A stretch of DNA of 60,000 bases from Malacoraja senta (taxonomy: Eukaryota): contig CM075987.1 in assembly GCA_038087875.1 (NCBI GenBank), positions 21,206,001-21,266,000 of the forward strand, written 5' to 3'. Shown piece after piece: positions 6,182 through 45,699 of this stretch. Each line of letters starts with the position of its first letter. The stretch's first letter is position 1. The position numbers were made by a program, and so were the translations under genes. The notes beneath the pieces were generated by a model. That model saw nothing but the letters and a program-made list of their open reading frames with translations, did not search any database and had not been told where the DNA came from.

Positions 6182-6954
6182 CAGTCATAATGTTTGGGAC
6201 AAAGACCCATCATTTATTTATTTGCCTCTGTACTCCACAATTTGAGATTTGTAATAGAAAAAATTAACTTATATCAGAGTGATGGCAAGAGCAAAGTATG
6301 GAGGAGAGAAGGAACTGCCCAAGATCCAAAGCATACCACCTCATCTGTGAAACCCGATGGTGGGGGTGTTATGACCTGGGCATGTATGGCTGCTGAAGGT
6401 ACTGGCTCATTGATCTTCATTGATGATACAACTGCTGATGGTAGCATAATGAATTCTGAAGTGTATAGACACATCCTATCTGCTCAAGTTCAAACAAATG
6501 CATCCAAACTCAATGGCCGGTGGTTTATTTTACAGCAAGACAATGATCCCAAACATACTGCTAAAGCAACAAAGGGTTTTTTCAAAGCTAAAAAATGATC
6601 TATTCTTGAGTGGCCAAGTCAATCACCCGATCTGAATTGAGCATGCCTTTAATATGCTGAAAAGAAAACTGAAGGAGACAAGCCCCCAAAACAAGCATAA
6701 GCTGCAATACATGCCAGGCAGAGCATCACCAGAGAAGACACCCAGCAACTGGCGATGTCCATGAATCGCAGACTTCAAGCAGTCATTGCTTGCAAAGGAT
6801 ATGCAACAAAATACAAAATATGACTACTTTCATTTACATGTCATTGCAGTGTCCCAAACATTATGGTGCCCTGATTTTTTTTCTATTACAAATCTCAAAT
6901 TGTGGAGTACAGAGGCATGATGGGTCTTTGTCCCAAACATTATGGAGGGCACTG
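6182..6954 (+). mobile_element. Internally deleted Tc1-family DNA transposon
   Basis: TA|CAGT...ACTG|TA; TIRs match the copy at 31625; transposase C-terminal remnant (GGGVMTW, QQDNDPKHT). Confidence 0.92.
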
Positions 6955-7481
6955 TATATTTTCCAGATTCCGTAAATCCTGCCACAGGTATAACGTAATC
7001 TATCAGGGTGGTAAAATTGTAACCTCTGGTTACATGAGGCCCAAACCACTGGAACCAGAGACTGAAAACAAAATGGGCTTTCTGAACTAATTTTCCTTGC
7101 GCTCTTTGATGTCTAATACTTCAAAGGCTAGGATTCATGATCGAGCTAGAACACATGAATATGAGATAATCTGCAATATATATTCAAGAGAAGCTTTAAC
7201 TAGAATGGTTGATGTATGAAACTTGCGTTCACAAATGTGTTTGGGGAAAGTGCCTGAGGCGGGAGAGGTGGTGGTTGGGTGGTGAGGGTGTGTAACTCAA
7301 AGAATCTGGAGGGAGAGATCTCTGCAGACAAGGGTGGGGACGAGAAAAGATGACTGGTGGTAGGATCACATTGAAAAGTGATGGCCTGCTAAGTTCCTCC
7401 AGCACATCATTTTTTGCTCAGTCCCGTCATCTGCAATCACTTGTCTCAGCCATCGAACATTCTCAGAATTTATAGTTGTTA

Positions 7482-7704: not shown

Positions 7705-8067
<363 letters not shown>

Positions 8068-9019
8068 TAGTAACTTACCTTTCCGACTCTTTCACACAGC
8101 TGGTTGGAATCTTGTGCTGCTAGGTTTCTTGTTTAGAAATTGCAATTTACATACTTAAAACCCATGTAAATTCTTCAAAACTTCTGTTTAAGCCTGGGCG
8201 GTTCTTGATCCTGTATCAGAAGATTATTCATCCATGTTCACTCTACAGTTGAGTTTGACAATCTTTATTAAATTAAAGCACCATTAAATTAAAGCAACAA
8301 TATTTGTTCAAATATTAATCTTGTCCCCAAGACGATGCCTGGTGATGTTTGATGGGTTGTTAGCAGCCTTGCAGCCAAGTCAGTTAGTTTTCTGGTACTT
8401 AATGTTTTAACTTGAGTTTTCAAATTAGATTATCGCAATGTTGAAGTCTTGTGGATCCCCTGTAATCCTTCGGTCCCCTCGAACAGGTTGTAGGGCATCC
8501 TACTGCTGTAGAAGTTTCAATGCACAGTCCATGGTGCATTTCTGATTATTGCTGTGTTTGAGATGAGGTGTTGAACTGGAGCCTCATCTCAGGCGACTGC
8601 AAAAAAAAAACATGGCTTCTTTTGAATACTGGAATTGTCAAACCTTCAGGTATCCCTCGAATAGCATCCATAAAATGGATCATTCAGTCACAATTGCAGT
8701 GCTGTTTGTGGAAGCTGGTCATGCACATTCTCATTTGTATTACTACTTTCAACACAGTTCAAAAGTACTTGATTGCCTGTGGGTGTTTTGGAATGAGTGT
8801 ATTTGGGAAGGTCTGTTCTGCAAGAAATGTTGAATTTGTCATGATTCACATTATCTATTTTTATTAAAAGGCTTTTTTTCTTTCTATAAAAATTGATATG
8901 TGGATTGTTTTCAATAAAGCATTCTATATAGTGCAGTCCTGGTACATTAAAAAAAAATCAGTAATAATTGTGTTATTACTTCATTACTTAATAACTATGT
9001 TATTAATTGATTCTTACTG

Positions 9020-9475
9020 AGATTTATGAGGATGTTGCCAGGAACTCGAGGATCTGAGCAAAGGGAGTGGTTGGGCAGGTTAGGACTTTATTCCTGGTGC
9101 AGGAGGCTGGGGTGTGATCTTATAGAGGAGTATCAGATCATGAGGGGAATTGATGGCATGAATGCACAGAGTCTTCTACCCAAAGTAGAGGAATCAAGAA
9201 TCGGAGAATCTGGATTTAAAGTGAGAGGGTAAGATTTAATGTGAACCCGAAGGTCAGATTTATTACGAACACAGTGGGTGGTGAGCATATGGAACGAATT
9301 GCCAGAAAATATAGTTGAGGCAGGTATTATGACAGCATTTAAAATAAATTTAGACTGGTTCAGAGGTTCAAGGTTTAGAGGAATGTGGTCCAAACACGGG
9401 CAGGTGGGGCATATTGGTTGGCTTGGGCAATTTGGCGAAGGGCCTGTTTCCGTGCTGCATGACTCTTGACTCTCT
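9020..9475 (+). mobile_element. CR1-type LINE 3' fragment
   Basis: RMLPG...RLGLYS...DLIEEYQIMRGID remnant plus tail gaagggcctgtttccgtgctg. Confidence 0.85.
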
Positions 9476-10419
9476 GTATTTAAGGTTTATAATGGTTTGC
9501 GACTAACAGCAAGGAGATGAAAGTTCAGAAAACAATTGTAACCAAGCACAAATATGAAATCTGCTAACTTAATTGAATTCAACACCCTGAATTTGTATAG
9601 TATCGTTAACATGCTAAAATATTCCAAGATGTGACAAGTACAATTAGAATCTGAACAAGGAAGAAACATTTGGAAGATATACTATTTTTTTTTTTTTTTT
9701 TAAGTAGGTTTTAAGATGGTATTTAAAGGTGGAGACAAAGAGTTGCTTGTAGTTGAGAAAAAGGGTGGGTTTTTGAGTGAGAAAGAAACGACACCAAGAT
9801 ACAAAAGTAGGTGGTTTTGCAGATAGTGAAGATGGTTGTGAAAGATCGCAGCAGGATCTTGATCGATTGGCCAGGTGGGCTGAGGAATGGTTGATGGAAT
9901 TTAACACACAGAAATGTGAGGTGTTGCGTTTTGGGACGTCTAACAAGGGCAAGACCTACACAGTGAATGGTAGGCCTCTGGAGAGTGTTATAGAGCAGAG
10001 GGATCTAGGAGTGCAGGTGCTTGGTTCCTTGAAGGTCGAGTCACAAGTAAATAAGGTGGTTAAAAAGACTTTTGGCACATTGGCCTTCATCAGTCATTGA
10101 GTATAGAAGTTGAGAGGTCATGTTGCAGTTGTATAAGATGTTGGTGAGACTGTATTTAGAGTATTGTGTCGAATTCTGGGCACCATGTTATAGGAAAGAA
10201 ACTGTCAAGCTTGAAAGGGTTCAGAGAAGATTTATGAGGATGTTGCCAGGACAAGAGGATCTGAGCTATAGGGAGAGGTTGAGTAGGTTGGGTCTCTATT
10301 CCTTGGAGTGCAGGAGGATGAGGGGTGATCTTATTGAGGTGTATAAAATCATGAGTAGAATAGATCGTGTAGATGCACAGAATCTCTTGCCCAGAGTAGG
10401 GGAATCGAGGACATAAGAT

Positions 10420-10516
10420 AAGATAAGATACGATAACTTTTATTGTCATTTGAACCTAAGTTCAAACGAAATTACGTTTCTGCAGTCATACAAACAAGAA
10501 AAAAAAGGAGAAAAAA
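10420..10516 (-). mobile_element. 97-bp 5'-truncated retroposon tail with (TCTTA)n end
   Basis: Flanked by 9-bp TSD acataagat (10411-10419 and 10517-10525); minus strand has gacaataaaag before the microsatellite tail. Confidence 0.7.
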
Positions 10517-10592
10517 ACATAAGATCAGGGTGAAGGGGAAAAGATTTAATAAGAATCTGAAGGGTAACTTTTTCATACAAAGGGTGGTGGTT

Positions 10593-13500
10593 AGAAACAT
10601 AGAAAATAGGTGCAGGAGTAGGCCATTCGGCCTTTCGAGCCTGCACCGCCATTCAATATGATCATGGCTGATCATCCAACTCAGTATCCCGTACCTGCCT
10701 TCTCTCCATACCTCCTGATCCCTTTAGCCACAAGGGCTACATCTAACTCCCTCTTAAATATAGCCAATGAACTGGCCTCAACTACCTTCTGTGGCAGAGA
10801 GTTCCAGAGATTCACCACTCTCTGTGTGAAAAAAGTTTTTCTCATCTCGGTCCTAAAGGATTTCCCCTCTATCCTTAAGCTGTGACCCCTTGTCCTGGAC
10901 TTCCCCAACATCGGGAACAATCTTCCTGCACCTAACCTGTCCAACCCCTTAAGAATTTTGTAACTTTCTATAAGATTCCCCCTCAATCTCCTAAATTCTA
11001 GCGAGTACAAGCCGAGTCTATCCAGTCTTTCTTCATATGAAAGTCCTGACATCCCAGGAATCAGTCTGGTGAACCTTCTCTGCACTCCCTCTATGGCAAT
11101 AATGTCCTTCCTCAGATTTGGAGACCAAAACTGTACGCAATACTCCAGGTGTGGTCTCACCAAGACCCTGTACAACTGCAGTAGAACCTCCCTGCTCCTA
11201 TAATCAAATCCTTTTGCTATGAATGCTAACATACCATTCGCTTTCTTCACTGCCTGCTGCACCTGCATGCCTACTTTCAATGACTGGTGTACCATGACAC
11301 CCAGGTCTCGTTGCATCTCCCCTTTTCCTAATCGGCCACCATTTAGATAATAGTCTGCTTTCCTGTTTTTGCCACCAAAGTGGATAACCTCACATTTATC
11401 CACATTATACTGCATCTGCCATGCATTTGCCCACACACCCAGCCTATCCAAGTCACCTTGCAGCCTCCTAGCATCCTCCTCACAGCTAACACTGCCCCCC
11501 AGCTTAGTGTCATCCGCAAACTTGGAGATGTTGCATTCAATTCCCTCGTCCAAATCATTAATATATATTGTAAATAGCTGGGGTCCCAGCACTGAGCCTT
11601 GCGGTACCCCACTAGTCACTGCCTGCCATTCTGAAAAGGACCCGTTTACTCCTACTCTTTGCTTCCTGTTTGCCAGCCAGTTCTCTATCCACATCAATAC
11701 TGAACCCCCAATACCGTGTGCTTTAAGTTTGTATACTAATCTCTTATGTGGGACCTTGTCGAAAGCCTTCTGAAAGTCCAGATATAACACATCCACTGGT
11801 TCTCCCCTATCCACTCTACTAGTTACATCCTCGAAAAATTCTATACGATTCGTCAGACATGATTTACATTTCATAAATCCATGCTGACTTTGTCCAATGA
11901 TTTCACCACTTTTCAAATGTGCTGCTATCCCATCTTTAATAACTAACTCTTGCAGTTTCCCCACTACCGATGTTAGACTAACTGGTCTGTAATTCCCCGT
12001 TTTCTCTCTCCCTCCCTTTTTAAAAAGTGGGGTTACATTAGCTACCCTCCAATCCTCAGGAACTACTCCAGAATCTAAAGAGTTTTGAAAAATTATCACT
12101 AATGCATCCACTATTTCTGGAGCTACTTCCTTAAGTACTCTGGGATGCAGCCTATCTGGCCCTGGGGATTTATCGGCCTTTAATCCATTCAATTTACCTA
12201 ACACCACTTCCCGGCTCACCTGGATTTCACTCAGTTCCTCCATCTCCTTTGACCTGCGGTCACCTGCTATTTCCTTTTTTTTTTTGAATAATAGTTTTAT
12301 TGGAGGCAAATACATATCATATTGAAAACATTTCATGCATTTCATTTCTACATTACTAATATTATCAAACGTTATTCGTGTTGTCTCCAATAGTTTTTTT
12401 TAATTTTTTTAATATAGATAAAAAATAATAAAGTAGCAGAAAGAAAGAAAAGAAAAAAAAGACAAAGGAAAAAAAAAAGAGAGATAATAAAGAAGAATGG
12501 AATAACTTACTAAAAATACATCATTAGAGATATATTCGTACATTTCAAAGTATAACTTTTCATCTAATCCTTGGCTCGAGTTTTAGTCAGGTTCTCGTGT
12601 CGAACCAGTCTGACCCTTCAAATAATCAATAAATGGAGACCATGTTCTGATAAATAATTCTTGTTTGTCCATTAGGACAAGTCTAATTCTTTCCAAATGT
12701 AAGGTCTCCGACATTTCTAAGATCCACATTTTAATTGTGGGGGTTATAGGACCTTTCCAAAATTTTAGTATTCATTTTTTTCCAGTTAAAGTTTCTTTGA
12801 GTTGTTGTAAATGTTTGCTTTTGTTCTAATATTCCTAGTATTATTAATTTTGAATCGGGATCCAATTGAGTGTTGACAACTATAGATATTATTCTAAAAA
12901 TATTTGCCCAGAATTTTTTTAATTTTTATACAATTCGCAAATGTATGAGTTAAGTTGGCATCTAAATGCTGACATTTATCACAAATAGGGGAGATATGTG
13001 GGAAGATTCTATTTAGTTTTGTTTTAGAATAATGTAATCTATGAATTGTATTAGAGAGTGTCTGGCATTTAATGAACATTGATGTATGTGTTGTAAACTT
13101 TCTTCCCAAGTATCTTTCGTTATTGTTTGATTTAGTTCCTTTTCCCATGTTTGCCTATATAAGTCCATCGATGGTATCTCACTATCTAATAAAGTATTAT
13201 ATATGTGAGATATTAATTTTTCTGTATTAGGATGTTTATTCAAACAGTCATCAAGGATTTCTGAATCTCTAGTTCTAAAATTTTGAGTATTTGCTTTAAC
13301 ATAATCTCTAAGTTGTAGATATCTGAAAACATCATTTAAGTGGAGTCCATAAGTCTGTTGTAGCTCCTGAAATGAAAGAAATGTGCCTTTCTTATAAAGT
13401 TGTCCCATCATTTTAATTCCATAATTTTTCCATTGTATGAAACCTTTATCCAACCAAGAAGGTTTAAATAAAGGGTTATTCACAATGGGAAGAAAAAGTG

Positions 13501-16500
13501 GTAAATTATCCAATTTTAATGTTTTTTTCAATTGTTTCCAAATTCGCATACCACTGTATATTATAGGATTTTCCCTATAAATTTTGTTGTTCAATTTCGA
13601 AGTAGCAAATGGTATCGAGCCAATTTCAAAGGGTAAACAATCTTCCTTTTCCATTTTTAACCAATCCGGTTGTTGATCTATTTCTTCCGACCAAAAATTC
13701 ATATTTTTAATGTTAACTGCCCAAAAATAAAACGTTGGTCTCCCCACGTTTACAAACACTGTATGAGTATACTTATATTCAACAGAAATTGCCAGATACC
13801 TTAAACAAATCTATAATAACACTTATACCAAAGGCTGATAAGGATCCCGAAGATCCAGGATCATACAGAGCAATTGCTCTTTTAAATACAGATCAGAAAA
13901 TATTAACTAAAATTCTAGCACACAGATTAAGTACAGTGATGAATAAATTTATACACCCTGACCAAACAGACTTTATTCAGAAACGGTATTCATATTTTAA
14001 TTTGAGACGATTATTTAATATAATATATTCAAAGAGAATCACTAACGAAGACCTAACAATAATCTCACTTGATGCTGAGAAAGCATTTGATCAGGTTGAA
14101 TTGCCCTATTTATTTTCGGTGATGGAAAAATTGCAATTGGGTGAGAAATTCTGTACATGGGTAAAACTTTTATATACTAACCCAACAGCTAGAATATTAA
14201 CAAATCAAAGACTATCATCTAAATTTAATTTATCTAGAGGTTGTAGACAAGGATGCCCGTTATCTCTGTTATTATTTGCACTTGCTATTGAGCCACTTGC
14301 TGAAAGAGTTAGGACCCACCCGGAAATCTACGGGTATAACACTAAAGACACAGTGAATAAAATTTCTCTATACGCAGATGATGTATTAATTTACATCATA
14401 AAACCAGAAATTACTATTCCAAATTTATTAAATTTAATAACTCAATTTTGTTTACTCTCTGGATACAGAATTAATTGGAATAAAAGTGAAATTATGCCAA
14501 TAAGGGAACATAATACATATATACTACAACAATTCCCGTTTAAAATAGTAAATGAAACATTTAAATATCTAGGAATTTATGTCACTAAGACATATGCATC
14601 ATTATTTAAATTAAATTTTCCCCCTTTACTGAATAAACTACATAAGAATATTCAGTACTGGAAAACACTTCCTATTTCAATGGTTGGTAAAATTAATGCC
14701 ATAAAAATGATTTTTTTTACCGCAAATATTATACCCTTTTCAAACAATTCCGATATATTTGCCAAAAAACGTCTTCAAAAATTGGATTCCATTATCACTG
14801 ATTTTATCTGGGATTATAAGAATCATAGGATAAGCAAAAAACATCTGTGCAAATCAAAAATAAATGGAGGTTTAGTTTCACCAAATTTTTTGTCCCCTGC
14901 TATTTCCGGCAGATTATTTATGTCTTCCTTAGTGAAGACGGAACCAAAGTACTTATTCAATTGGTCCGCCATGTCCTTGTTCCCCATGATCAATTCACCT
15001 GTTTCTGACTGCAAGGGACCTGCATTTGTTTTAACTAATCTCTTTCTCTTCACATATCTATAAAAACTTTTGCAGTCAGTTTTAATGTTCCCTGCCAGTT
15101 TTCTTTCATAATCTATTTTCCCTATCCTAATTAAGCCCTTTGTCCTCCTCTGCTGGTCTCTGAATTTCTCCCAGTCCTCTGGTCGGCTGCTTTTTCTGGC
15201 TAATTTGTACGCTTCATCTTTTGCTTTGATACTATCCCTGATTTCCCTTGTTATCCACGGATGCACTACCTTCCCTGATTTATTTTGCCAAACTGGGATG
15301 AACAATTTTTGTAGTTCATCCATGCAGTCTTTAAATGCCTTCCATTGCATATCCAACGTCAACCCTTTAAGAATTAATCGCCAGTCAATCTTGGCCAATT
15401 CACGTCTCATACCCTCAAAGTTACCTTTCTTTAAGTTCAGAACCATTGTTTCTGAATTAACCATGTCACTCTCCATCCTAATGAAGAACCCAACAATATT
15501 ATGTTCACTCTTGCCCAAGGGGCCACGCACAACAAGACTGTTAACTAACCCTTCCTCATTACTCAATACCCAGTCTAGAATAGCCTGCTCTCTCGTTGGT
15601 TCCTCTACATGTTGGTTAAGAAAACTATCCCGCATACATTCCAAGAAATCCTCTTCCTCAGCACCCCTGCCAATTTGATTCACCCAATCTATATGTAGAT
15701 TGAAGTCACCCATTATAACTGTTTTACCTTTGTTGCACGCATTTCTAATTTCCTGTTTGATGCCATCCCCAACTTCACTACTACTGTTAGGTGGCCTGTA
15801 CACAACACCCACTAGCGTTTTCTGCCCCTTAGTGTTTCGCGGCTCTACCCATATCGATTCCACATCCTCCAAGCTAATGTCCTTCCTTTCCATTGCGTTA
15901 ATCTCCTCTCTAACCAGCAACGCTACCCCACCTCCTTTTCCTTTCTGTCTATCCCTCCTGAATATTGAATATACCTGGATGTTCAGCTCCCAGCCTTGGT
16001 CACCCTGGAGCCATGTCTCTGTGATCCCAACTATATCATAATCATTAATAGCTATCTGCACATTCAACTCATCTACCTTATTACGAATGCTCCTTGCATT
16101 GAGACACAAAGCCTTCAGGCTTGTTTTTACAACGCTCTTACCCCTTATACAATTTTGTTGAAAAGTGACCCTTTTTGATTTTTGCCCTGGATTTGTCTGC
16201 CTGCCACTTTTACTTTTCACCTTGCTACCTATTGCTTATACCCCCCATTTTACACCCCTCTGTCTCTCTGCTCACACATTTAAGAACCCCACCACCTCTT
16301 ATTCTCTGTTTATTATTGTTTTCTTCTTCCCCCCCCCCCCTACATGTTGGGTCTGAGTGCTTCCCTTCTCTGCCTCCTGCCTCACACACTGTCTACTGGG
16401 TTTCTCTATTTGAGTCCCTCCCCCCAACCGTTCCAGTTTAAAGTCTCCGCCGTAGCCTTTGCAAATCTCCCCGCCAGGATATTGGTTCCCCTCGGGTTCA

Positions 16501-17650
16501 AGTGCAACCCATCCTTTTTGTACAGGTCGCACCTTCCACAAAAGAGGTCCCAATGATCCAGAAACTTGAATCCCTGCCCACTGCACCAGTCCTTCAGCCA
16601 CACATTTATCCTCCACCTCGCTCCATTCCTACTCTCACTGTCGCGTGGTACAGGCAGTAATCCCGAGATTGTCACCTTTGCGGTCCTTTTTAACTCTCCT
16701 CCTAACTCCCTAAATTCTCCTTTCAGGACCTCTTCTCTTTTTCTACCTATGTCATTGGTACATATATGTACCACGACCTCGGGCTCCTCTCCCTCCCATT
16801 TCAGGATATCTTGGACACGTTCAGACACATCCGAGACCCTGGCACCAGGGAGGCAAACTACCATCCGGGTCTCCCGACTGCATCCACAGAATCGCCTGTC
16901 TGACCCCCTAACTATAGAGTCCCCTATTACTAATACCCTCCTCTTCTTTTCCTTAGCCTTCTGAGCAACAGGACCGGTCTCTGTACCGGAGGCCCGGCCG
17001 CTGTTGCTACCCCCAGGTAGGCTGTCCCTCCCAACAGTACTCAAACAGGAGTACTTATTGTCAAGGTGTACAGCCACCGGGGTACTCTCTAGTCCCTGCC
17101 TGTGCCCCTTGCCCCTCCTAACCGTGACCCACTTGCCTGCCTCCTGTGGTCTTGGAGTGACCACCTCTCTGTAACTCCTCTCAATGACTTCCTCGCTCTC
17201 CCTGACCAGACGGAGGTCATCGAGCTGCTGCTCCAGGTTCCTAATACGGTCCCTTAGGAGCCCCACCTGGCGCAGATGTGGACGTCTGGAAGGCTATCAG
17301 ATTCCTTGACCTCCCACATCTGACATCCAGAACAGTAAACTGCCCTGGCACTCATACTCCTCCTGTACCTAGGATACAATACAAAGCACAGTACAATACA
17401 ATCAGCAAGGATCCGACTCCCAATCAGCTGCTCCCTCTTGTCTGCTTCCACCAATCAGCGGCTTCCTCAAGCCCACTTGTTTTGAAATGCGAATGGAACT
17501 TGGAACGTTACAGATTTTGATTCCTCCTCCCTCTGTGACCTCTCCAACGGCTCTTGGGCCTCTGTAAGAAGCAAGCCCCGCGCTCGAGTTTATCTCCTAC
17601 CGCTCGGGTGTAGCTCCTCCCTCTGCGACCGCTCCAACGGCTCTCGGGCC
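10593..17650 (-). mobile_element. Apparently full-length CR1 LINE (~4.4 kb without its insert): ORF1 Zn-finger/coiled-coil/SGNH esterase, ORF2 APE endonuclease-RT
   Basis: ORF1 from ATG at 17355 (CSGC...HICAR, frameshift near 17260, GDSIVRG, HICTND, DGLHLN); ORF2 16220-14892 plus 12274-10681 (NARS, TETWL, GDFN, QGSVLGP, FADD), joined through duplicated EIAGD; 3' tail tttctatgtttcta. Confidence 0.95.
12275..14891 (-). mobile_element. L1/Tx1-clade LINE, 5'-truncated and 5'-inverted
   Basis: Poly(A) 11 nt and AATAAA (12301-12296) on minus strand; 16-bp TSD gtc(a/c)cctgctatttcc at 12259-12274 and 14892-14907; RT (SLDAEKAFD, RQGCPLS, YADD) on + at 13731-14891; C-terminal part on - at 13733-12275. 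Confidence 0.93.
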
Positions 17651-18224
17651 GTTGTATGGAACAAGCTGCCAGAGGAGGTAGTTGAGGCTGGGACTACCCC
17701 AATGTTTAAGAATCAGTTAGACAGGTACATGAATAGGTCAAGTTTGGAGTGATATGGACCAAGCACAGGCAGGTGGGACTAGCGTAGCTGGGACATGTTG
17801 GCCGGTATGGGCAAGTTAGGCCGAAGGGCCTGTTTCCATACTGTATCACTCTATGACTCTAAATAGGTCATCATACAAGTATTGTGCATTCAGCAAGTAG
17901 TTAATGCTTGCTAAAGGAATCTTAGAATCTGCCTTGGCAGGAAAATTCCTTGCTTCATCTAAAAATTCAATGCTAATTTGATTTGGTTGCTTACCTTTAA
18001 ATGAGTAGTTCTTTCCAGTTAATTGGAATGTTCACCCTTGAACAGTTCCACTGCTGGCGTGTTGCTGCTTCATTTATGACCAATGGACATATCCATGGTG
18101 GAATGCAATCTAAGTTTCGTTGAGTTGCTTTCACAGTATAAGTATTTTTATGAAGCTAATATGAAACTGTTCTGTCACTTCATCCAATGGGTCACATTTC
18201 TTGCAGAATGACCCTGCTCTCACC

Positions 18225-18960
18225 TACGATATGATACGATACAATATAACTTTATCCCAGGAGGGAAATTAATCTGCCAACAGTCATAAAACACAAGATA
18301 CATGAAATTAAAGTGACCAGTGGAAAGGACTGGGGATGTGCAAGGGTGGGGGGAGGGGCAGGGGGGGTGGTTGTACAGTTTGATAGCCACATGGAAGAAG
18401 GATCTCCTGTGGTGTTCTGTATTGCATCTTCGTGTAACCAGTCTGTTGCTGAAGGTACTCATCATGTTGACTAGTGTGTCATGGAGGGGGTGAGCTATAT
18501 TGCCCAAGATGCTCTGCAGTTGGAGTCGCATCCTCCCCTCCAAGACTACCTCCCATGAATCCAACTCCGCCCCCTTTGCCCTGCTGCCCTAGCAAACAAC
18601 AGCAAAGAAGATGGCACTGGCTACCACCGATTGGTAGAACATCTGCAGTATCTTGCAGCAGACGTTGAAGGAGCGGAGCCTTCTCAAAAAGTACAGCCGG
18701 CTTTATCCCTTCTTGTACAGGGCCTCAGCGTTCCTGACCAGGTACACTCCAGGGTATTTGTACTCCTTGGTGAACTGCACATCCACGCCATTGATGAAGG
18801 CAGGGGACAGGGGTGTTCCTCTCCTCCTAAAGTCCACCACTAACTCCTTAGTCTTGTCAGTTGAGCTGCAGGTGGTCCACACCACTCCACAAAGTCATTG
18901 ACTACACCTCTGTATTCAGCTTCCCTCCCCTCACTGATGCAGCCCACAATTGCAGAGTCA
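18225..18960 (-). mobile_element. Rex1/Babar-like LINE 3' fragment with (TATCG)n-like tail
   Basis: DSAIVGCISEG, KTKELVVDFRR, HPLHDTL...RRSF remnants; ataaag followed by the microsatellite tail. Confidence 0.8.
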
Positions 18961-19485
18961 TTAAACACCTACTACAGGTGCACAGTAGAGAGCATGCTGA
19001 CCGGTTGCATCGTGGCTTGGTTCGGCAACTTGAGCGCCCTGGAGAGGAAAAGACTACAAAAAGTAGTAAACACTGCCCAAGTCCATCATCGGCTCTGACC
19101 TCCCTTCCATCGAGGGGATCTATCACAGTCGCTGCCTCAAAAAGGCTGGCAGTATCATCAAGGACCCACACCATCCTGGCCACACACTCATCTCCCTACT
19201 ACCTTCAGGTAGAAGGTACAGGAGCCTGAAGACTGCAACGACCAGGTTCAGGAATAGCTACTTCCCCACAGCCATCAGGCTATTAAACCTGGCTCGGACA
19301 AAACTCTGAACTTTAATAGCCCATTAACTGTTATTTGCATTTTTTCAGTATATTGATTCATGTGTGTATATATTTATAGAATGCCTTGTAGTCAATGCCT
19401 ACTATGTTCTGTTGTGCTGAAGCAAAGCAAGAATTTCATTGTCCTATCAGGGACACATGACAATAAACTCACTTGAACTTGAACT
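18961..19485 (+). mobile_element. Rex1/Babar-like LINE 3' fragment of a second family with (TTGAAC)n tail
   Basis: YRCTVESMLTGCIVAWFGN...KRLQKVVNTAQ; tail acatgacaataaactcacttgaacttgaact. Confidence 0.85.
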
Positions 19486-20399
19486 ACTCTCAACTACCCT
19501 CCACCCTGAGCTTTTCGGATTTGGAAGTGTAACATTTTCCATTTAGGCATCCTGCAATCAGGTATGCAGCTCTATCTTGCATCCCCTTCTACCCTTGGAA
19601 GAACATGATCCAAAAGGGTGCAAGTCATTTACTAGAAGTACCCCAAAAATGTAACGTAAATGTAATCAAAAATATTTTTGGCCAAACTTCAAAACAAAAC
19701 ATTGATTTGAAATACAGCTAGGTAATGGTCACCAATGCTGTGCAAAGTGTTCCATTGTCTCCATCTAGTGTTGTGCTTGAGCATAACATGACCTTGCCAT
19801 ATTTGGCCAAAGTCACAGCAGGTAGCACTGGCCAGGAAGTGTTCTCCTTCCCCCCACTACCTCTTGATGGTTTCATGTGAGAAAGATTTTGGGGTCTAAA
19901 AGGGATAAAATCATATGCTGAGCTTTGCTGCTGAGAACGAGTTAGTTCGGAATCTCAGCAACTCCTGCTGTGGGATGGATGAACATGTCATGACCTTCTG
20001 GCTCGCACATCAAAAGAACCAGCTTGCAACCATCATCAGCAAATAAGTTCCAAACCTAGAAACCATACTCTCGACGTTGAGAAGATCTTACCCGGCATCC
20101 CATTGGGAGACAAAATGATTTTCCTATGCTCTTCAGTGCCAGTTCAGATAAGATGGAGAATTCCCTTTAAGCACGATCAGCAAAAAGTGAGTCTGGACAG
20201 GCTGTCCTGTTGAAATAATGTTTGGAACACAATTTTGTCATAATGAAAGCGAGAGAGAGAGAGAGAAGCACATAACCTCAAAGCAACATCGCTGTTCCAA
20301 ACACTGGTTTCAGTTGTAATATGTCATCATCTGAGTGAGAGACCACAAGGATGCCTGTGCCATGATGAGTTGCAATGACTGTTAGCACATTATGGCCTA

Positions 20400-21100
20400 A
20401 TTGACTTGGTTATTGTCATCTACCTGACGGCGGAGCAGTTGCGGCAACAGAAACTCTGGCATATGAAAATCGGCACTGAAGGTTACAAGGATCTTGCATG
20501 GATAGTTCTTGGATTGAAAACTTCACCGTCCTACAATAAAAAAGAGCTACTCCACAGGCAACTGAAGGCCAAAGTCCAACAGAAGATGCGTGACCCAAAG
20601 AATACAGGAGGTCTAGCAAGTTGATTATAACCGCAACATGCACGGATTCCTCAGCATTGTCAAGGCCATCCATGGCCCAAGGTCTGCCCCACTGAGAACT
20701 AAGATTGAAAGTTACCTCGCTAAGGGTTGAGAGGTCATCAATGTTCACTGGAATGATCATGTCAACCTCTGTCCTTCACTCCATTCCACTCCTGAGTAAA
20801 GACCTTAAACTCAGCACAAAGCTTATTGTTTATTGTCAGCAGTGAGCCCAGCACTCCCAGTATACTTCTTTGTCCCAGACCTCTGTCACTGGAGTGATAT
20901 CAACAATAGTGTCTCTGCAAAATTTCTAAATCTAAAGGCAAGAAAAGTGAATAGGCATCACTTTCATCACAGAGGCCAATGTAAAAGTGTTACAGTCCCA
21001 CCATCTCTGACATGTTTAAGAATGCCGCAAATAACTTCAGCTGCCACCTTTGACCTTGTAGATGAAAGTGGCTATACGTTTAATTTAAACGGCGGATCTT
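20400..21100 (+). mobile_element. Highly degenerate RTE-clade LINE fragment
   Basis: LKAKVQQKMRD and KAIHGP...HWNDH remnants with frameshifts; boundaries approximate. Confidence 0.45.
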
Positions 21101-22979
21101 TTCCCAAAACAGCTTTGCCTTTTCACTAATTAGGCATCTAAAAACTTCCCTTTTTCGAATAATAAGGCAGCAGTTTACATACAAAATGCTTCCACAACAT
21201 GAATCTGAAATGGATTCTGCAAGAGTGAATTTCCATTACCCAAAGGGCTGTAATGCAAGGATCCCCTGTAAAGCAAGTTCTCCCAGTGTCCGAATGAGAA
21301 TTCCTTCCTAAATAGTGCTGGGCAGATAACAGTTTTCATCTAATTTGCTCTGTGGAATCCTGCCCAAAGTAACTGCCACATTTCTTTGAAAAATACCAGT
21401 ACCCAGAGTTTTCAGAATAGATGAAATAATGAATTAGTTGTTAAGAGTTTTGGGTATCCTGAGGACTTGAAAACACTGTTCCAATGCTTTTATTCTTATC
21501 AATTTTGACACAAAAAGTGTTTATAAAGTCCTAATGTTAACTGAAAAGGAAAAATCTGGATTGAAAGCAGTATGTTGGAATTGCTAATGAGAGTTCGTTG
21601 ACCTGAACTGTTAACTCTGTTTCGCTATCGGATATTGCTAAGCATTTTTGTTTTACCTTCATTTTGCCAGCATCTGCAGGGCTTTTGTCGTTTCAGAAAA
21701 TGTTTATAATGCTTAATGAGCCAGGGAGCACTTGTGGAGAAACTGGAATCAGTCATTATATTGATGGTGAATTTATAAGAATGCAGGAATGTAGATCTGA
21801 AATTAAGTGCGGTTCTGTTCTCACTGGCCTGACCATCCTTGTACCCAAACGTTAAACCCTCCGTGAGTGGTTCATTTTGCAGATCCTAAATAAGATAATA
21901 TTCTGTGTGCCAGCCCTCTAAGTACATGTAAACACTTAAAGTTTTGTGGTGGTTGTTATATTTGGTAATGCGGCAAGAATGTTACCTTCACCACTGACAC
22001 AAAACAGATCCTGTGGATTAAAGTTTTAGTTTGCTTTCTTAGAAAACAGGATTTAATAGGTTGTGAAAATAATTTAAACCTATTTACATAGGGTATAGTA
22101 TCAAGCCAATAGTATTGATCAATTAAGCAGTTCCAAGCAAGTTGCCTTTCTGAAGGTGGGGATGGGGGAGGGGAGGGTTGGCGGGGAGAGTAATTCGGGG
22201 TTAGTCTGATTTCCTGAAAGGCTTTAAGATTTGAATGTGGCTCAAATTTAGTTTGTATCTTTTTTTTGGGTGTTGTAAAACCCCATTGAAATTTCCTCAT
22301 CATCCACTTCAACCCAGTCAAGGAGTCATACTCCACAGTTTCCACTGCCTTCAGCAAGATACCACCAAATCCTGTCTTCCCCTTTCAATATTCCAAATGG
22401 ATCATAGCCTCTTCGATTCCCTGGGTCACAAATCTGTTATTAATGGTTGTACTCTTCGTGTTAGACTTTTGTAGCCAAGTAAAAGAATTTTGAGAACATT
22501 ATAAATACAAGTTTAACATTTGCATTAAGGTGCATTAGCAAAAGTTGTACAATCTGAATCCTATCTTTGGCCTAAACTATTTCCAAAATTAACATGGAAT
22601 AATCAGTTCTCATAAGTTCTTAATTCACAGGAGCAGAATTAGGCCATTAGTCCCATCAAGTCTATTCAATCATGGTTGATCTCTCTTTCCTTCTCGGCCC
22701 CATTCTCCCGCCTTCTCCCCATTCTCCTTTTGCATTTCTCTTTGATTTACTCATGGAAATCAACCCAAAGCTCAATTCATGAACATGGGGGTGAGCACAG
22801 TGTGAATGTAAAGAGTTCTGTGTATGGTCCAACAGTATCGTTTTTTTAACACAAAACTGTTACTTCACTCTTATGAGCAGAAATACAGTATGATGGTTTC
22901 CGCCATTTTCCAAGTCGTACAGCATTTAAACAAGTCCTTGGACTTGCATGCCATCCATGAAGAACCCATTTGCACAGTT

Positions 22980-23195
22980 CCTGCACTAATCCCACTGTTT
23001 TTAAACTCACATTGCCACCAACTTCTCCCAAGATTTTCCATTCACCTACACATTTCAACTTGCATGTCTTGTGGAATGTTGGAAGAAATCCAATAGTTAC
23101 TGGGAGAATGTGCAAACTCAACACAAACAGCTTTAGAGATCAAGATTGAACTCTAGTCACTGGAGTTGTGAGGTAGAGGTTCCAGCCACTACAGT
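22980..23195 (-). mobile_element. Degenerate tRNA-derived V-SINE-like element
   Basis: gggagaatgtgcaaactc core shared with 43985-44290. Confidence 0.5.
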
Positions 23196-23622
23196 TTTAA
23201 AATTATGTATTTCAGCTTCATAAATTCAGTTTAGTTTATTGTCACATGTACTGAGGTACAGTTGAAAACTTTTGATACGTGCTAACGATTGGGCCTATAA
23301 AGGGGAAAATTGTTTAAAATTGAACGCAACATTGCTCCACGGCCACGAGTGGAAAGAGCAAGAAAATTAGTTTGGAATGCTCTTGGAAAGGCCCAACAGG
23401 TACACGACAGACAGTGTTGTCCCAGATCCTGAGGACAATTGAATACCGGAAAATTGAATTTAAATAATGTTGCTACTCTTAAAACTACATCAGAAATCAA
23501 ACTTCAACGTAACTTGTGCATTTGAACATTTTCTTTTTTTTAATATCAAAAAAAGTCTTACCACATCCAGTTAACAAAAGTCAGAATGGAAAGTGAAGGT
23601 TTCTCCTTAAAGGGACTACTGA

Positions 23623-23874
<252 letters not shown>

Positions 23875-31394: not shown

Positions 31395-33480
31395 AATGAC
31401 TTGGAGGCCTGAGCAATAGGAAGAGACTGGGCAGATGAATACAGGAGGCTGAAAGATGAATTTATAAAGGTGTAAAAAATCCATAAGGGGAATAGATAGG
31501 GTGAGTGCAGAGTCTTTATTCCAGGCAGAGGAATGCAGAACTACATGGAATAGTTTTAAGATGAGAAGGGAAAGATTTAATAGGAATCTGAGGGGCAATC
31601 TTTTCCCACAGAGGGTGGTGGATACAGTACCCTCCACAATGTTTAGGACAAAGACCCATCATTTATTTATTTGCCTCTGTACTCCACAATTTAAGATTTG
31701 TAATAGAAAAAATCACGTGGTTAAAGGGCACATTGTCAGATTTTATTAAAGGCCATTTTTATACATTTTGGTTCCACCACATATAAATTGCAGCTGTGTT
31801 TATACATAGTCCCCCCCCCATTTCAGGGCACCATAATGTTTAGGACACATGGCTTCACAGGCGTTTGTAATTGCTCAGGTGTGTTTAATTGCCTCCTTAA
31901 TGCAGGTATAAAAGAGCTCTCAAGCACCTAGTCTTTTCTCCAGTCATTCCATCACCTTTGGAAACTTTTATTGATGTTTATCAACATGAGGACCAAAGTT
32001 GTGCCAATGAAAGTCAAATAAGCCATTATGAGACTGAGAATCAAGAATAAAACTGTTAGAGACATCAGCCAAACCCGAGGCTTACCAAAATCAACTGTTT
32101 GGAACATCATTAAGAAGAAATAGAGCACTGGTGAGCTTACTAATCGCAAAGGGACTGGCAGGCCAAGGAAGACCTCCACAGCTGATGACAGAAGGATTCT
32201 CTCTATAATATAGAAAAATCACCAAACACCTGTCTGACAGATCAGAAATACTCTTCAGTCAGGTGTGGATTTGTCAATGACCACTGTCCGCAGAAAACTT
32301 CATGAACAGAAATACAGAGGCTACACTGCAAGATGCAAACCACTGGTTAGCCGCAAAAATAGGATAGCCAGGTTACAGTTTGCCAAGAAGTACTTGAAAG
32401 AGCAATCACAGTTCTGGAAAAAGGTCTTGTGGACAGATGAGATGAAGATTAACATAGAGTGATGGCAAGAGCAAAGTATGGAGGAGAGAAGGAACTGCCC
32501 AAGATCCAAAGCATACCACCTCATCTGTGAAATACGGTGGTGGGGGTGTTATGGCCTGGGCAAGTATGGCTGCTGAAGGAACTGGCTCACTTATCTTCAT
32601 TGATGATACAACTGCTGATGTTAGTAGCATAATGATTTCTGAAGTGTATAGACACATCCTATCTGCTCAAGTTCAAACAAATGCCTAAAAACTCATTGAC
32701 CGGCGGTTCATTCTACAGCAAGACAATGTTCCCAAACATACTGCTAAAGTAACAAAGGAGTTTTTCAAAGCTAAAAAATGGTCAATTCCTGAGTGGCCAA
32801 GTCAATCACCCGATCTGAACCCAATTGAGCATGCCTTTTATATGCTGAAGAGAAAACTGAAGGGGACTAGCCCACAAAACAAGCATAAGCTAACGATGGC
32901 TGCAATACAGGCCTGGCAGAGCATCACCAGAGAAGACACCCAGCAACTGGCGATGTCCATGAATCGCAGACTTCAAGCAGTCATTGCATGCAAAGGATAT
33001 GCAACAAAATACTAAACATGACTACTTTCATTTACATGACATTGCTGTGTCCCAAACATTATGGTGCGCTGAAATGGGGCATACTATGTATAAACACTGC
33101 TGTAATTTCTACATAGTGAAACCAAAATGTATAAAAATGGCCTTTATTAAAATCTGTCAATGTGCACTTTAACCACATGTGATTTTTTTTTAAATTACAA
33201 ATCTCGAATTGTGGAGCACAGAAGCAAATAAATAAATGATAGGTCTTTCTTTGTCCCAAACATTATGGAGGACACTGTGTATGGACGTGCTGCTAAAGGA
33301 AGTATTTGAGGCAGAAATACAATAACATTTAAAAGACATTTGGACAGGGCTAAGGAGGGGAAAGGTTTAGAGGGATATGAGCCAAACGCAGATAACGGGG
33401 ACTAGTTTAGATGGGGCATCTCGGTTGGCATGGACGAGTAGTGACAAACAACTTATTTTCAGCTGTAAGACACTACAGGA
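31395..33480 (+). mobile_element. CR1 3' fragment interrupted by a Tc1 insertion
   Basis: RFNRNLRGNLFPQRVV before 31625 continues as tatggacgtgctgc after 33277. Confidence 0.7.
31625..33277 (+). mobile_element. Full-length but inactivated Tc1-family (IR/DR type, DD34E) transposon
   Basis: TA|CAGT...CACTG; ~220-bp inverted repeats with inner direct repeats (31822-31848 and 33047-33079); transposase pseudogene 31986-33016 with GRPRKT, WTDE, QDN-x34-E (DLNPIE) and several stops. Confidence 0.95.
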
Positions 33481-34238: not shown

Positions 34239-35283
34239 GTGAGTGTTGGTTGTGCAGTACATACTGGGGCTCTTTGGCTGGCCCTGTATAAGCTATCGTG
34301 TCCTGAACTGCAAACAATACCCCCAGTTTTAAAGATGGATAAAATCCATATTTATCTATATTCATTTGCACTATATCTATTCATTTGCTGTAATAAATCA
34401 TGTCTTTGGAACCAGGTCGGTATTTTTTGAGAGACAATGAACCGCAGGTGATGGAATCTTGAACAAAACAGTGCTGCAGGAACTCAGCGAGTCAGGTAGC
34501 ATCTGTGAAGGGAAAGGATAGGCGACATTTCACGTCAGGATGGTTCTTCAGAACTTTGAGTTAGCAAGGAAGTGCATGGGTTTTCACCAGAAGCCTCCAA
34601 GCCTGCAGCCAATACTTGCAGGGACTCTGCCCGGTATTTGCGTGGATGACCTGAGAGTTTGCCAGTATTTGCTGCACTAAACTTTTGTGGCTAATGAGCT
34701 GACTTCGTCATTGTAAGTTCAATTTTGTAGATGAAATGTGGCCTGTAGGTCAAACGTCAGCCTGTAGGTCAAATGTTAAAGCACTAAATATCTTCCACTG
34801 TCCTAATTAATCTGTGGTAAATGTCTGGATGGATACTGGTCGAAACAGTGAGCTGATTGCTGATCATATGGATATAGCCACCCAACTGGCAACTGCACCT
34901 ATTGTCAACTGGCAATAGACAATAGGTGCAGGAGTAGGCCATTCGGCCCTTCGAGCCAGCCATTTAATGTGATCATGGCTGATCATCCCCAATCAGTACC
35001 CCGTTCCTGCCTTCTCCCCATATCCCCTGACTCCGCTATTTTTAAGAGCCCTATCTAGCTCTCTCTTGAAAGCATCCAGACAACCTGCCTCCACTGCCCT
35101 CTGAGGCAGTGAATTCCACAGACTCACAACTCTCTGTGAGAAAAAGTGTTTCCTCGTCTCCGTTCTAAATGGCTTACTCCTTATTCTTAAGTTGTGGTCC
35201 CTGGTTCTGGACTCCCCCAACATCGGGAACATGTTTCCTGCCTCTAGCGTGTCCAAACCCTTAACAATCTTATATGTTTCAAT

Positions 35284-35421
35284 CTTCTTCTTGCATATGG
35301 TGTGCACAGCCTAAAGTTGTAGGACAACTTGTTCTATTTGATCTTATTTGATTGTGCACGCCGGGTTGATTGCATTCGTCGAAACAGGGCGGACCACGTG
35401 AAGTTTGCAATCTTCCACCCC
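35284..35421 (-). mobile_element. 138-bp SINE-like element with a 5' HDV-like ribozyme and (AAG)n tail
   Basis: Perfect 12-bp TSD atatgtttcaat (35272-35283 and 35422-35433); starts GGGGTGG, ends gcaagaagaag. Confidence 0.85.
35368..35421 (-). ncRNA. Minimal HDV-like self-cleaving ribozyme fold (54 nt; one P3 mismatch in this copy)
   Basis: P1 GGGGTGG/CCGCCCT with G1-U wobble; P2 GATTGCA/TGCAATC; P3 AAC/GGT; L3 TTCACGT; short P4 around TTCG; J4/2 CGAA. Confidence 0.75.
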
Positions 35422-36232
35422 ATATGTTTCAATGAGGTCCCCTCTCATCCTTCTGAACTCCAGAGTGTACAAGCCCAGCCGCTCCATTCTCTCAGCATAT
35501 GACAGTCCCGCCATCCCGGGAATTATCCTTGTAAACCTACGCTGCACTCCCTCAATAGCAAGAATGTCCTTCCTCAAATTAGGGGACCAAAACTGCACAC
35601 AATACTCCAGGTGTGGTCTCACTAGGGCTCTGTACAACTGCAGAAGGACCTCGTTGCTCCTATATTCGACTCCTCTTGTTATAAAGGCCAACATGCCATT
35701 CGCTTTCTTCACTGCCTGCTGTACCTGCATGCTTACTTTCATAGACTGATGAACAAGGACCCCCAGATCCCGTTGTACTTCCCCTTTTCCCAACTTGACG
35801 CCATTTAGATAGTAATCTGCCTTCCTGTTTTTGCTACCAAAGTGGATAATCTCACATTTATCCGCATTAAACTGCCTGACAAGCTTCCACTGCATGTCAC
35901 CATCATTGGGCTTTTCCAAATAATTGTAAGTCTACAGGCTTGGGGAAGATTGAGTTTGCAATTTCTTTATGACTAAACACATTCACACAGTATTGGACAT
36001 ATGTTGACTTGGAGCTGAGGGTGGCTCAGTGCCGTGCAGAGTGGACCAGAGTGCGATTCTTTCCAACAGTCCGATCCGATAATAAAACAATTGCAGGTCA
36101 TGCCAGGTTCAGGTTGAGTGTTAATCTTGTACCCAACCTATCCTCTATCCTCCTTCATTCGTATTCTGAATTCTTCGCTTGAAACAGTGTTGACCAGCAA
36201 TATAACGGTAATCTTTGTCATGTGCTTTGCAG

Positions 36233-36403: not shown

Positions 36404-37411
36404 GTATGTTTCACATTGCACGAGGTGGGAGTAAGAAAGCAGGAAGTGGCGTGGAGGTTTGGAAGGTTGTTCATTGTAGGTGACCCCCCACATAATAGCA
36501 TTTGTGTAACAGAAATCCCCCCCATGTGATTCACAAATCATTCCAAAAATCATTCCATGAAATTTATGTAGGGAGATAAATCTAAATAAATACAAATATT
36601 TTTCGACTCCCATTTTGTGATGTGCAGATGGTGTGGCTTTGTGTGTTTGCAAGAACACAACTGCTTATAAGGTGGGAGTCACCAACATGAGGAGCAATTC
36701 ATTGCTGTGGGCCAACATGAATTTGTAGCTGAACTGAGTGGATTTGGATTTGTTTCAGAGCAGGCTCTTCAGAATAATCATGAGTCAGATTTGCAAACAA
36801 ATTTCCCTCTTCACCAACAACCTTCCCCTACCCCTACCGCACATACAGCGACCATAACGCATTATCCCTTTGCAGCGGTGATGCAACCAAGCCTTTAACA
36901 GACTTGTCCTTGCATTCTTTCAATTCTGTGGCATCTCAACTCCAACACAAACATGCATTCTCAGACCCCAACCCAAGTACGTGTATGCTCATTGCACAAA
37001 CCAGGCCCTCCCTCTTTCCCTGCCTCCACTAATGTCCCAACCACATGCCTGCATCTTCATCAACAGCACTGACTTGCCACCCCACCACAGACCTCCACCC
37101 CCAGACATGCCCAACACTATTATTAAAACTTATTATTAAGCCTGCTTTCCCAGTCACAGTGTAAGGAGCAGAATTAGGCCATTTGGTCCATTGAGTCTGC
37201 TCTGCCATTCGATCATGACTGATCTATTCTTCCCTCTTAACCCCATTCTCTTGCATTCTCACCATAACCTTTGACGTCTTCATAGCACTGAAGGCAATCT
37301 GATCCAGGCGATAATTTGTTGGAACAATTGGAATAGCACTTGCTGGTCCAGAGAGTTGAGATCTTGTGATGTGTTAGAAGTACACGTACTTATGTTTGCC
37401 TCTGCCTCCAG

Positions 37412-39162
37412 ATTCTGCGGACCATGAAATGGCCATTTCTCCAATGCTGCCACGGAGAGACAAAGACACAGATGGCACCTTGGACGATGATCGTTTACAG
37501 TCTTCCACCAAAGAGAAAGGCAAATCCAGTTCAATCTTCAGCTCTTTCATTAAGAAGAAGAAAAAGACTGCACCCACACCACCAAAGCGCAGTAGCTCAT
37601 TCCGCGACATGGACGGGCAGGTGGACAAAAAGGAAGCGGCAGAGGACATCAGCATAGTTACTAAAGATACTAACAATGGAACTTGTGTGAACAGCATGAT
37701 GCCTCCCGACACAATAGATCCTGGAAAATTTCAGCACTCGCTTAGCACTGGGCCACAAAGTACAAACAATGGAGCCGGAGGGGTTGCCAATGGCAGTTTC
37801 TTGGGAACAACAGGGTTCTTTCTGCATTCGAAGAAGTCCAGTACATTAGCTGCAGGCAAACCAGTTGGGAATGAAGAGGAACTGCTCTCAAATTCAAAGC
37901 GCTTCTTGAGATCTTGCTCTGCATCATCGATGCCTCCTGGAAACAAGGACACGGAGAGGAAAGCATTGACACTCCCTCGAGACCTCCAGTCTGCAGGGAA
38001 ACTGTCCGATCCTGCCGGGATCTTAAGTTGCGACAGGAATGAGAAGCCAGCCTTGCCTCGAAAGAGGACAAATGAAACTAAAGTGGACATTGCTCCTCGG
38101 ATAAGCCAAACTGCACCATCTCGACTACCGAAAAAGACTGACGAATTAAATGATGATGTTTTTAATAATGTGGAGTCCAGTCCGAGCTCAAGCCCACCGT
38201 CATCCACTCCAAAGATCGTCCGCAGGCAACCCACAGTCATTACATCAATCAGTCTCATCCCGAAGGACAAGGATGACGGTGGGAAGACTTGTGCCTTAAG
38301 TTCTGCTTCCCAACAGGACCATATCTCCTCTAGTGTTGCTGCTTGCACATCCAAACACAGCTCCACGTCGATCCTGGGCGGGGTGAAGCTGCTGAACGCA
38401 GATTCCAAGGTACGAAGGTTCAGGCAGCCTCCCGACCAGCTCCTGTCGGCCCCCGTAAGAGACCGGGGTAAATTGCAGAAATCTAAGCCAGCTCCTCCTC
38501 CGCCACCAGGTGTGAAATCTGTTCGACCGTCTCGAAGCCCGACCCACGAGACAACGGGCGAGACTTCTGTGAGCATCAAGCTCAAGCAGTCCACCCAGGG
38601 TGCCGACCCTGTGAACAGTGATGCTTCGAAGCCCGGTCACCCTGGGGATGTGGCGAAAAGACCTGCCCTCCATTCGGTAGCAAAGTCTCAATCATCCACG
38701 AAGACATCGACCCCCAACTCAACCGCATCCTCACTCTCTGCACAGTCTGCCCTAGCAAGCCCCAGTAGTGACCAGCAGTCCTCCGCAACCACAGCCTTCA
38801 TCCCGCTCATCTCCACCAGAGTGTCCTTACGCAAGACACGACAGCAGCCAGAGAGGATCACCAGTGCCAACATTACCAAGGACACCGTTTTACAGAGCAC
38901 CGAGGCGTTGCGGGTCGCCATTGGAAAGAACTCTGAGCAGATGGCCAGCCACAGTGCGGTGCTGGAGGCGGGCAAGAATCTATACACCTTCTGCGTTAGC
39001 TACGTTGACTCCATCCAGCAAATGCGCAATAAGTTTGCCTTTAGGGAGGCCATCAACAAGCTGGAGTGCAACTTACGGCAGTTACAGATCTGCTCAGCCA
39101 GTCAGGACTTCACAAAACTGCTCTCATCTGTGAAAGAAATCAGTGACATTGTCCAGAGGTAG
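37412..39162 (+). CDS. ABL1: ABL1 last coding exon (exon 11 equivalent): NLS, PxxP motifs, DNA-binding region, F-actin-binding domain, stop
   Basis: ctccag|AT TCT... to TAG at 39160-39162; IKKKKKTAPTPPKRSSSFR, TLPRDLQS, KPALPRKR, C-terminus LLSSVKEISDIVQR (ABL1-type). Confidence 0.97.
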
Positions 39163-45692: not shown

Positions 45693-45699
45693 CATCACT

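Follow-up and report, generated by a model that had tools for sequence, protein, structure and literature searches.

Twin priming, the model that Ostertag and Kazazian reportedly proposed in 2001 for 5′-inverted copies of the L1 retrotransposon, is documented almost wholly from mammalian L1. As described in PMC2912911, it predicts a layout of target-site duplication (TSD), inverted segment, poly(A) segment and second TSD. The same source counts 639 5′-inverted copies among 2,068 recent L1 insertions of human and chimpanzee, and a long-read study 165 among 897 germline L1s (PMC12016303). Here we describe a 5′-truncated L1-clade long interspersed nuclear element (LINE) from the skate Malacoraja senta, at 12275–14891 of a 60,000-nt window (GenBank assembly GCA_038087875.1, contig CM075987.1, positions 21,206,001–21,266,000), where it is nested in a CR1 LINE within a predicted ABL-family gene. 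We conclude that the copy most probably arose by twin priming in a single retrotransposition event. This natural copy, resolved to the single base in the genome of a cartilaginous fish, shows that such an outcome is possible far outside mammals.

The human copies set the terms of comparison. Their TSDs measure 10–20 bp when 5′-inverted, and L1 TSD lengths peak at 13–15 bp in several hosts, zebrafish among them (PMC4245944). About 70% of inverted human copies have 2–5 bp of microhomology at the 5′ junction (PMC2912911), and the two complementary DNA (cDNA) ends lie within 20 bp of one another in 132 of 287, overlapping in 54 of those (PMC12016303). Outside mammalian cells, the zebrafish element Nimb-2_DR (Nimb clade) gave one 5′ inversion in chicken DT40 cells, where human L1 gave no inversions; the authors of that study hold that inversion depends on both host and element (PMC4245944).

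Anatomy of the insertion

The 2,617-bp copy lies between two 16-bp TSDs that a repeat search found identical at 15 of 16 positions. The single mismatch, at the fourth base on the plus strand, is silent within a host glycine codon. Searched on both strands with up to one mismatch, the 16-mer occurs at these two sites alone in the window. G+C content is 29% in the insert and 42–45% in the flanks. Two segments in opposite orientation make up the insert: a minus-strand segment running from 13733 to 12275 (1,459 bp) and a plus-strand segment from 13734 or 13735 to 14891 (1,158 bp), the latter carrying a reverse transcriptase (RT) domain (RVT_1). The poly(A) tail (A11) abuts the 3′ TSD and the inverted upstream part of the element begins at the 5′ TSD, so that one inversion breakpoint falls exactly on the TSD edge.

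The first-pass annotation, made from the sequence alone, had reported this bracketing repeat with its one mismatch, the tail with its AATAAA signal and a plus-strand RT segment ending against the TSD, and all three are borne out. Its minus-strand segment beginning at FYFWAVNIK also stands, although its first phenylalanine codon begins at 13732, off by one from the 13733 proposed. The nick on the plus strand reads TTTCC/GG (14907/14908), of which the CC|GGAAA target named earlier is the minus-strand reading. For a test at base level, public contigs of four sequencing runs (X1–X4, X4 bearing another organism code) were placed on the window. The features of the insertion are as follows.

12259–12274, no strand: TSD copy on the poly(A) (3′) side of the element (repeat search; X1 and X2 contigs)
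12275–12285, minus: poly(A) tail of 11 nt, T11 on the plus strand (sequence)
12296–12301, minus: AATAAA polyadenylation signal, 10 nt ahead of the tail (motif position)
12286–12582, minus: 3′ untranslated region (UTR), low complexity (stop of open reading frame 2, ORF2, at 12585–12583)
12583–13733, minus: non-inverted, presumably poly(A)-primed segment with the C-terminal part of ORF2p (residues ~882–1262) and a Cys/His motif (reading frame interrupted near 13043 and 12789; contigs with loose ends at 13040, 13043 and 12788)
13731–13736, no strand: inversion junction (13732–13733 is GT in element sense and recurs at 14892–14893)
13734–14891, plus: inverted, presumably internally primed segment with ORF2p residues ~496–881, including the RT domain (RVT_1, E 7.9e-37; compensated frameshift pair near 14711 and 14776)
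14892–14907, no strand: TSD copy on the 5′ side of the element, with the microhomology to L1 RNA at the putative internal priming point in its first two bases (repeat search; contigs)

Lacking ORF1 and the endonuclease domain, and carrying several frameshifts that the first-pass annotation overlooked, the L1 copy is dead. The 60-kb window holds no second copy of it. Within the 3′ UTR, the bin at 12344–12440 has the lowest summed contig depth in all four runs, far below that of the coding part; this UTR is low-complexity and may vary between subfamilies.

The two segments belong to one element

Aligned to the listed homologues with full-length ORF2p, the plus-strand segment corresponds to residues ~496–881 and the minus-strand segment to 882 to ~1262. 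Once the sequence is re-inverted, 116 of 120 homologues align across the join in one high-scoring segment pair (HSP) with no gap within 8 residues. The spacing of motifs agrees with the re-inverted reading in 83 of the 120; 30 lack the motif as defined by a regular expression, and 7 lack the second motif. Base composition in element sense is alike between the segments (A 38 and 40%, T 32 and 31%).

The contigs resolve the same continuity at base level. Among the 15 contig joints listed, from a total of 119, the uninverted family joins 13731 to 14893 on opposite strands, with two letters fitting either side. This join is carried in run X2 by two contigs (summed depth 777, shorter side 31 letters) and in run X4 by one (depth 70, shorter side 34 letters). 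The contigs that bear it are ordinary uninverted family members, and no base is lost at the break. The same GT stands at the start of the non-inverted segment (13733–13732) and at the TSD edge (14892–14893), as had been read from the sequence at the outset. Likewise, the earlier claim that re-inversion gives a continuous reading with almost nothing lost holds in protein and DNA alike, and the segments are contiguous in the family; a lack of contiguity was among the outcomes that the first-pass annotation had named as refuting it.

This exactness bears on two other origins. Two RNAs of one family could have been copied from the two ends of a single break, or two insertions at one site could abut by chance; twin priming on different RNAs has been proposed for chimaeras of small nuclear RNA and L1 (PMC4476161) and of transfer RNA and L1 (PMC13174262). 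The pieces here meet, however, at the same 2 nt of family sequence, which is unexpected for independent templates, and they share a single TSD and a single tail, leaving a separate-template origin with a very slim chance. A chimeric read or mis-join could instead have flipped part of an ordinary copy during assembly. The contigs compared come from other runs rather than from the source reads, and one frameshift pair sits in homopolymer runs, both of which favour such an artefact. Yet the 2 nt shared at the break are far below the length of a mis-joining overlap, the mirror copies of a fold-back are absent (no self-match in 12275–14891 at E<1e-10) and one breakpoint sits exactly at the TSD; we consider an assembly error extremely improbable.

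All 30 bins of the element are covered in all four runs, mostly by contigs 90–99% alike, which roughly suggests that the L1 family is widespread among the organisms of these runs and that the present copy is a few per cent diverged. Indels in the contig alignment mark the compensated frameshift pair near 14711 and 14776.

The target is an open CR1 frame

The flanks of the L1 copy together form one minus-strand LINE, whose RT frame occupies the left flank and whose endonuclease frame lies in the right one, followed further out by a GDSL-esterase ORF1.

10592–12274, minus: host CR1 LINE, 3′ part with the RT domain and 3′ end (RVT_1; 95% identical to the copy at 44556–45695)
14892–17293, minus: host CR1 LINE, 5′ part with the endonuclease part of ORF2 (to 16235; Exo_endo_phos) and the GDSL-esterase ORF1 (16406–17293; Lipase_GDSL_2, E 2.3e-10)

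Deleting the insert with either TSD copy restores a 973-codon CR1 frame without internal stops, so that the target is an otherwise open frame, a point missed in the first-pass annotation. A stop-free frame is weak evidence when taken alone, 1,225 of 3,721 shifted deletions being likewise stop-free. Because it does not fix the breakpoints, the TSD call rests on the repeat together with protein alignment and contigs. In alignment with P0267, a protein of Leucoraja erinacea, the restored frame crosses the site without a gap (94% in this HSP). Contigs in all four runs skip the insert and so represent the empty site: contig ends left loose at 12274 and 14892 carry on into the flank across the insert, and 12274 is continued directly by 14908 onward in 34 contigs of X1 and 33 of X2. 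Nesting in an open CR1 frame leaves the target site unusually well defined.

Probable origin by twin priming

Such a locus has a ready account, for which we infer both the order of events and the use of a single RNA as template. An L1 endonuclease would have nicked the plus strand of the resident CR1 at TTTCC/GG (14907/14908), and the freed end would have started reverse transcription at the poly(A) tail. Before copying was complete, the opposite strand would have been cut 16 nt away. The second 3′ end, ending in AC, could then have annealed to a GU inside the same RNA near ORF2 codon 881, yielding a cDNA of ~1.16 kb toward the RNA 5′ end that halted near codon 496. The first cDNA (1.46 kb) would have reached and passed through the same GU, after which the cDNA ends would have been joined at 13733/13734 and the gaps filled.

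The TSD, the tail, the opposite orientation of the segments, the break without lost bases and the 2-nt match are all present. The length of the TSD agrees with the human range and the 13–15 bp peak given above, and the 2-nt match with the usual 2–5 bp. Together, the TSD, the inverted 5′ segment, the poly(A) segment and the base-exact abutment support the twin-priming reading first offered for this insert. Where the internal priming is placed, the target 3′ end and the RNA share a 2-nt microhomology, GT, a dinucleotide found at 2.8% of positions in the element. At the 5′ TSD end, three further G:U-type pairs are possible with the run of U after the GU; the resulting pairing score is matched by 0.5% of element positions, a score picked after the site was seen.

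At the inversion junction itself, two close relatives (P0121 and P0122) have an aspartate ahead of the codon with which the inverted segment opens, a hint that G13734 may not have been templated. The palindrome aacgtt (13731–13736), which had been offered as part of the evidence, is present, but we reject it as support: 61 of the 2,612 six-base windows in the insert (2.3%) are palindromic, and a palindrome centred on the join carries no weight because it is not complementarity, and hence not microhomology, between the two cDNA ends.

DNA repair that flipped the front 1.16 kb of an ordinary 5′-truncated insertion, during insertion or later, would yield the identical sequence, 2-bp match included. 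Resection and self-annealing of a cDNA end followed by end-joining could achieve this, as could a later inversion that used the end of the TSD and the internal GT as a 2-bp inverted repeat; L1-induced remodelling of break ends does give inversions in human cells (bioRxiv 10.1101/2024.12.14.628481). The self-annealing example in that preprint, however, had 14 bp of homology, whereas no inverted repeat of at least 12 bp links the breakpoints here. A simple snap-back (PMC11371274) would mirror first-cDNA sequence, whereas the present segments overlap by 2 nt only. A later inversion, for its part, must have struck the element/TSD edge exactly and lost nothing at either end. We regard a repair flip as improbable.

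Several observations count against twin priming. The microhomology is just 2 nt, and end-joining or a later inversion could give the same. The nick TTTCC/GG lies outside the human consensus (TTTT/A, TTTT/G or TTTC/A) and leaves two terminal C opposite the poly(A). We have one copy only, which says nothing on frequency. For microhomology between the cDNA ends at the inversion junction, which is frequent though not universal, the comparison extends to the protein context of P0121 and P0122. The uninverted join appears in two of the four runs and in neither X1 nor X3 among the joints listed, and none of the contigs or reads listed, with 78,214 pieces beyond the list, spans this copy's own junctions. 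On the matter of the nick, human L1 tolerates terminal mismatches, C best of all (PMC3649969), and the human consensus occurs at 569 of 897 germline L1s, making it a hallmark and not a requirement (PMC12016303).

Classification of the inserted element

Among solved structures of non-LTR proteins, the RT of the L1 copy is closest to human L1 ORF2p (E 6e-68), with R2 scoring E 3e-16. In an RT tree of 36 rows, it falls in a four-row group with three unnamed proteins (P0121–P0123, 72–80% identical). That group lies in a 12-row clade (support 100/99) with a Salmo protein and the locus L001, and the clade in turn belongs to a group of 25 rows, set apart from CR1, that takes in proteins named LINE-1 ORF2 (support 100/99). 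The CR1 rows P0267 and P0288 dropped out of the tree build, and the tree includes no named Tx1 reference.

Outside the RT, a Cys/His motif near the ORF2p C terminus is a feature of the L1 clade, and a C-x2-C...H...C pattern is found in the ORF at 12894–13154. An L1-type ORF1, made up of a coiled coil, an RRM and a CTD, is lacking in this truncated copy. The Tx1 clade is recognized by RT grouping with Tx1 elements and by a non-L1 ORF1. In L001, a full-length relative with 58% RT identity, ORF1 matches human L1 ORF1p structures (E 4e-10); a Pfam search of the same ORF1 gave no L1 ORF1 family. Structure match, tree and the ORF1 of L001 support the L1 clade proposed for this element. A Tx1 assignment, judged on a tree lacking a named Tx1 sequence, appears less likely, the ORF1 of L001 pointing to L1 instead.

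Genomic setting

We take the host LINE to be a CR1 element, in keeping with its esterase ORF1. Aside from the L1 insert it is nearly intact (10592–17293), with its GDSL-esterase ORF1 and stop-free ORF2 frame. In the 36-row tree its RT clusters with proteins from turtle, frog and elasmobranchs. Among named proteins it matches best those of Leucoraja erinacea (92% and 86%), Mobula (86%), Chiloscyllium (76%) and Hypanus (74%), against about 53–55% for turtle, frog and the best bird matches, in agreement with the cartilaginous fish lineage guessed initially and pointing most likely to a batoid, probably a skate. Two further CR1 3′ fragments lie at 44556–45695 (95% identical to the host element) and 34915–35875 (~77–81%).

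Putative kinase exons, recognized by their motifs, lie on the plus strand at ~7990–8055, 23790, 26440, 29250, 30100 and 34170, and the last exon (37378–39162, plus) carries an F-actin-binding domain. From these exons, the CR1 and its nested L1 are placed in one intron (~8055 to 23775) of a predicted plus-strand ABL-family gene (7990–39162).

Other elements in the window include a 1.65-kb element at 31624–33278 bounded by ~225-bp terminal inverted repeats with direct repeats inside them, presumably a DNA transposon of Tc1/mariner type, and a shorter relative at 6186–6957 with perfect inverted arms. At 49552–50460 (plus) there is a 3′ fragment of another LINE RT, with a partial RVT_1 and an ALKBH8_N profile. 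Elsewhere, LINE-type RTs (L080–L087) were met on short contigs in genome records of Rhizobiales, Turicibacter, Sphingobium and Sedimenticola; these are probably host DNA in those bacterial assemblies.

Comparison with known systems

Our literature search returned no report of twin priming in cartilaginous fish, its coverage leaving out the likeliest papers on fish L1 junctions, and none of its fish and shark matches used the term 'twin priming'. Work by Ichiyanagi and Okada on zebrafish L1 (2006) and a further paper of theirs from 2008 may already report inversions of fish L1. Among the sources retrieved, a study of L1 evolution in vertebrates leaves inversion unmentioned (PMC5381506), and three others have 'twin priming' or 'inversion' in their reference lists only (PMC5389967, PMC6007223 and PMC3747384).

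No inverted piece of the same element was found in 87 loci (79 plus 8, distant), a set chosen for intact RT and for that reason little informative. Minus-strand ORF2p matches in 2 of the 87 do not represent inversions, both being weak and lying beside a complete plus-strand element. A single-protein query found no close family DNA in metagenome or viral contigs.

One dead intronic copy by itself alters no model. That twin priming is routine for L1 in skates and rays, at a rate nearing the mammalian 18–31% and not yet in print, seems doubtful to us. Were it so, twin priming would be ancestral to the L1 proteins of jawed vertebrates and not a product of mammalian host factors, the view suggested by comparing human with chicken cells (PMC4245944). 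Counting inverted copies across whole elasmobranch assemblies would tell whether it is the element or the host that the pathway follows.

Of described cases outside mammalian cells, the Nimb-2_DR insertion in DT40 is alike in that a fish-derived LINE produced a 5′ inversion. It differs in being an engineered element of another clade in cultured cells, whereas the skate copy is natural and germline. Teleost and amphibian L1 lineages (P0001 from Salmo trutta; L001) share the ORF2p layout, 55–60% identity over the RT segment and membership of the 12-row clade, whereas the proteins closest to the window RT are the unnamed P0121–P0123 (72–80%). The twin-primed L1s of human and chimpanzee resemble the present copy in a TSD of 10–20 bp, in layout, in short 5′ microhomology and in cDNA ends that lie near one another or overlap; the skate copy departs from them in its cartilaginous fish host, its fish-type L1 lineage and its off-consensus nick. 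The process is a known one; the host lineage is new, and the example is resolved unusually well.

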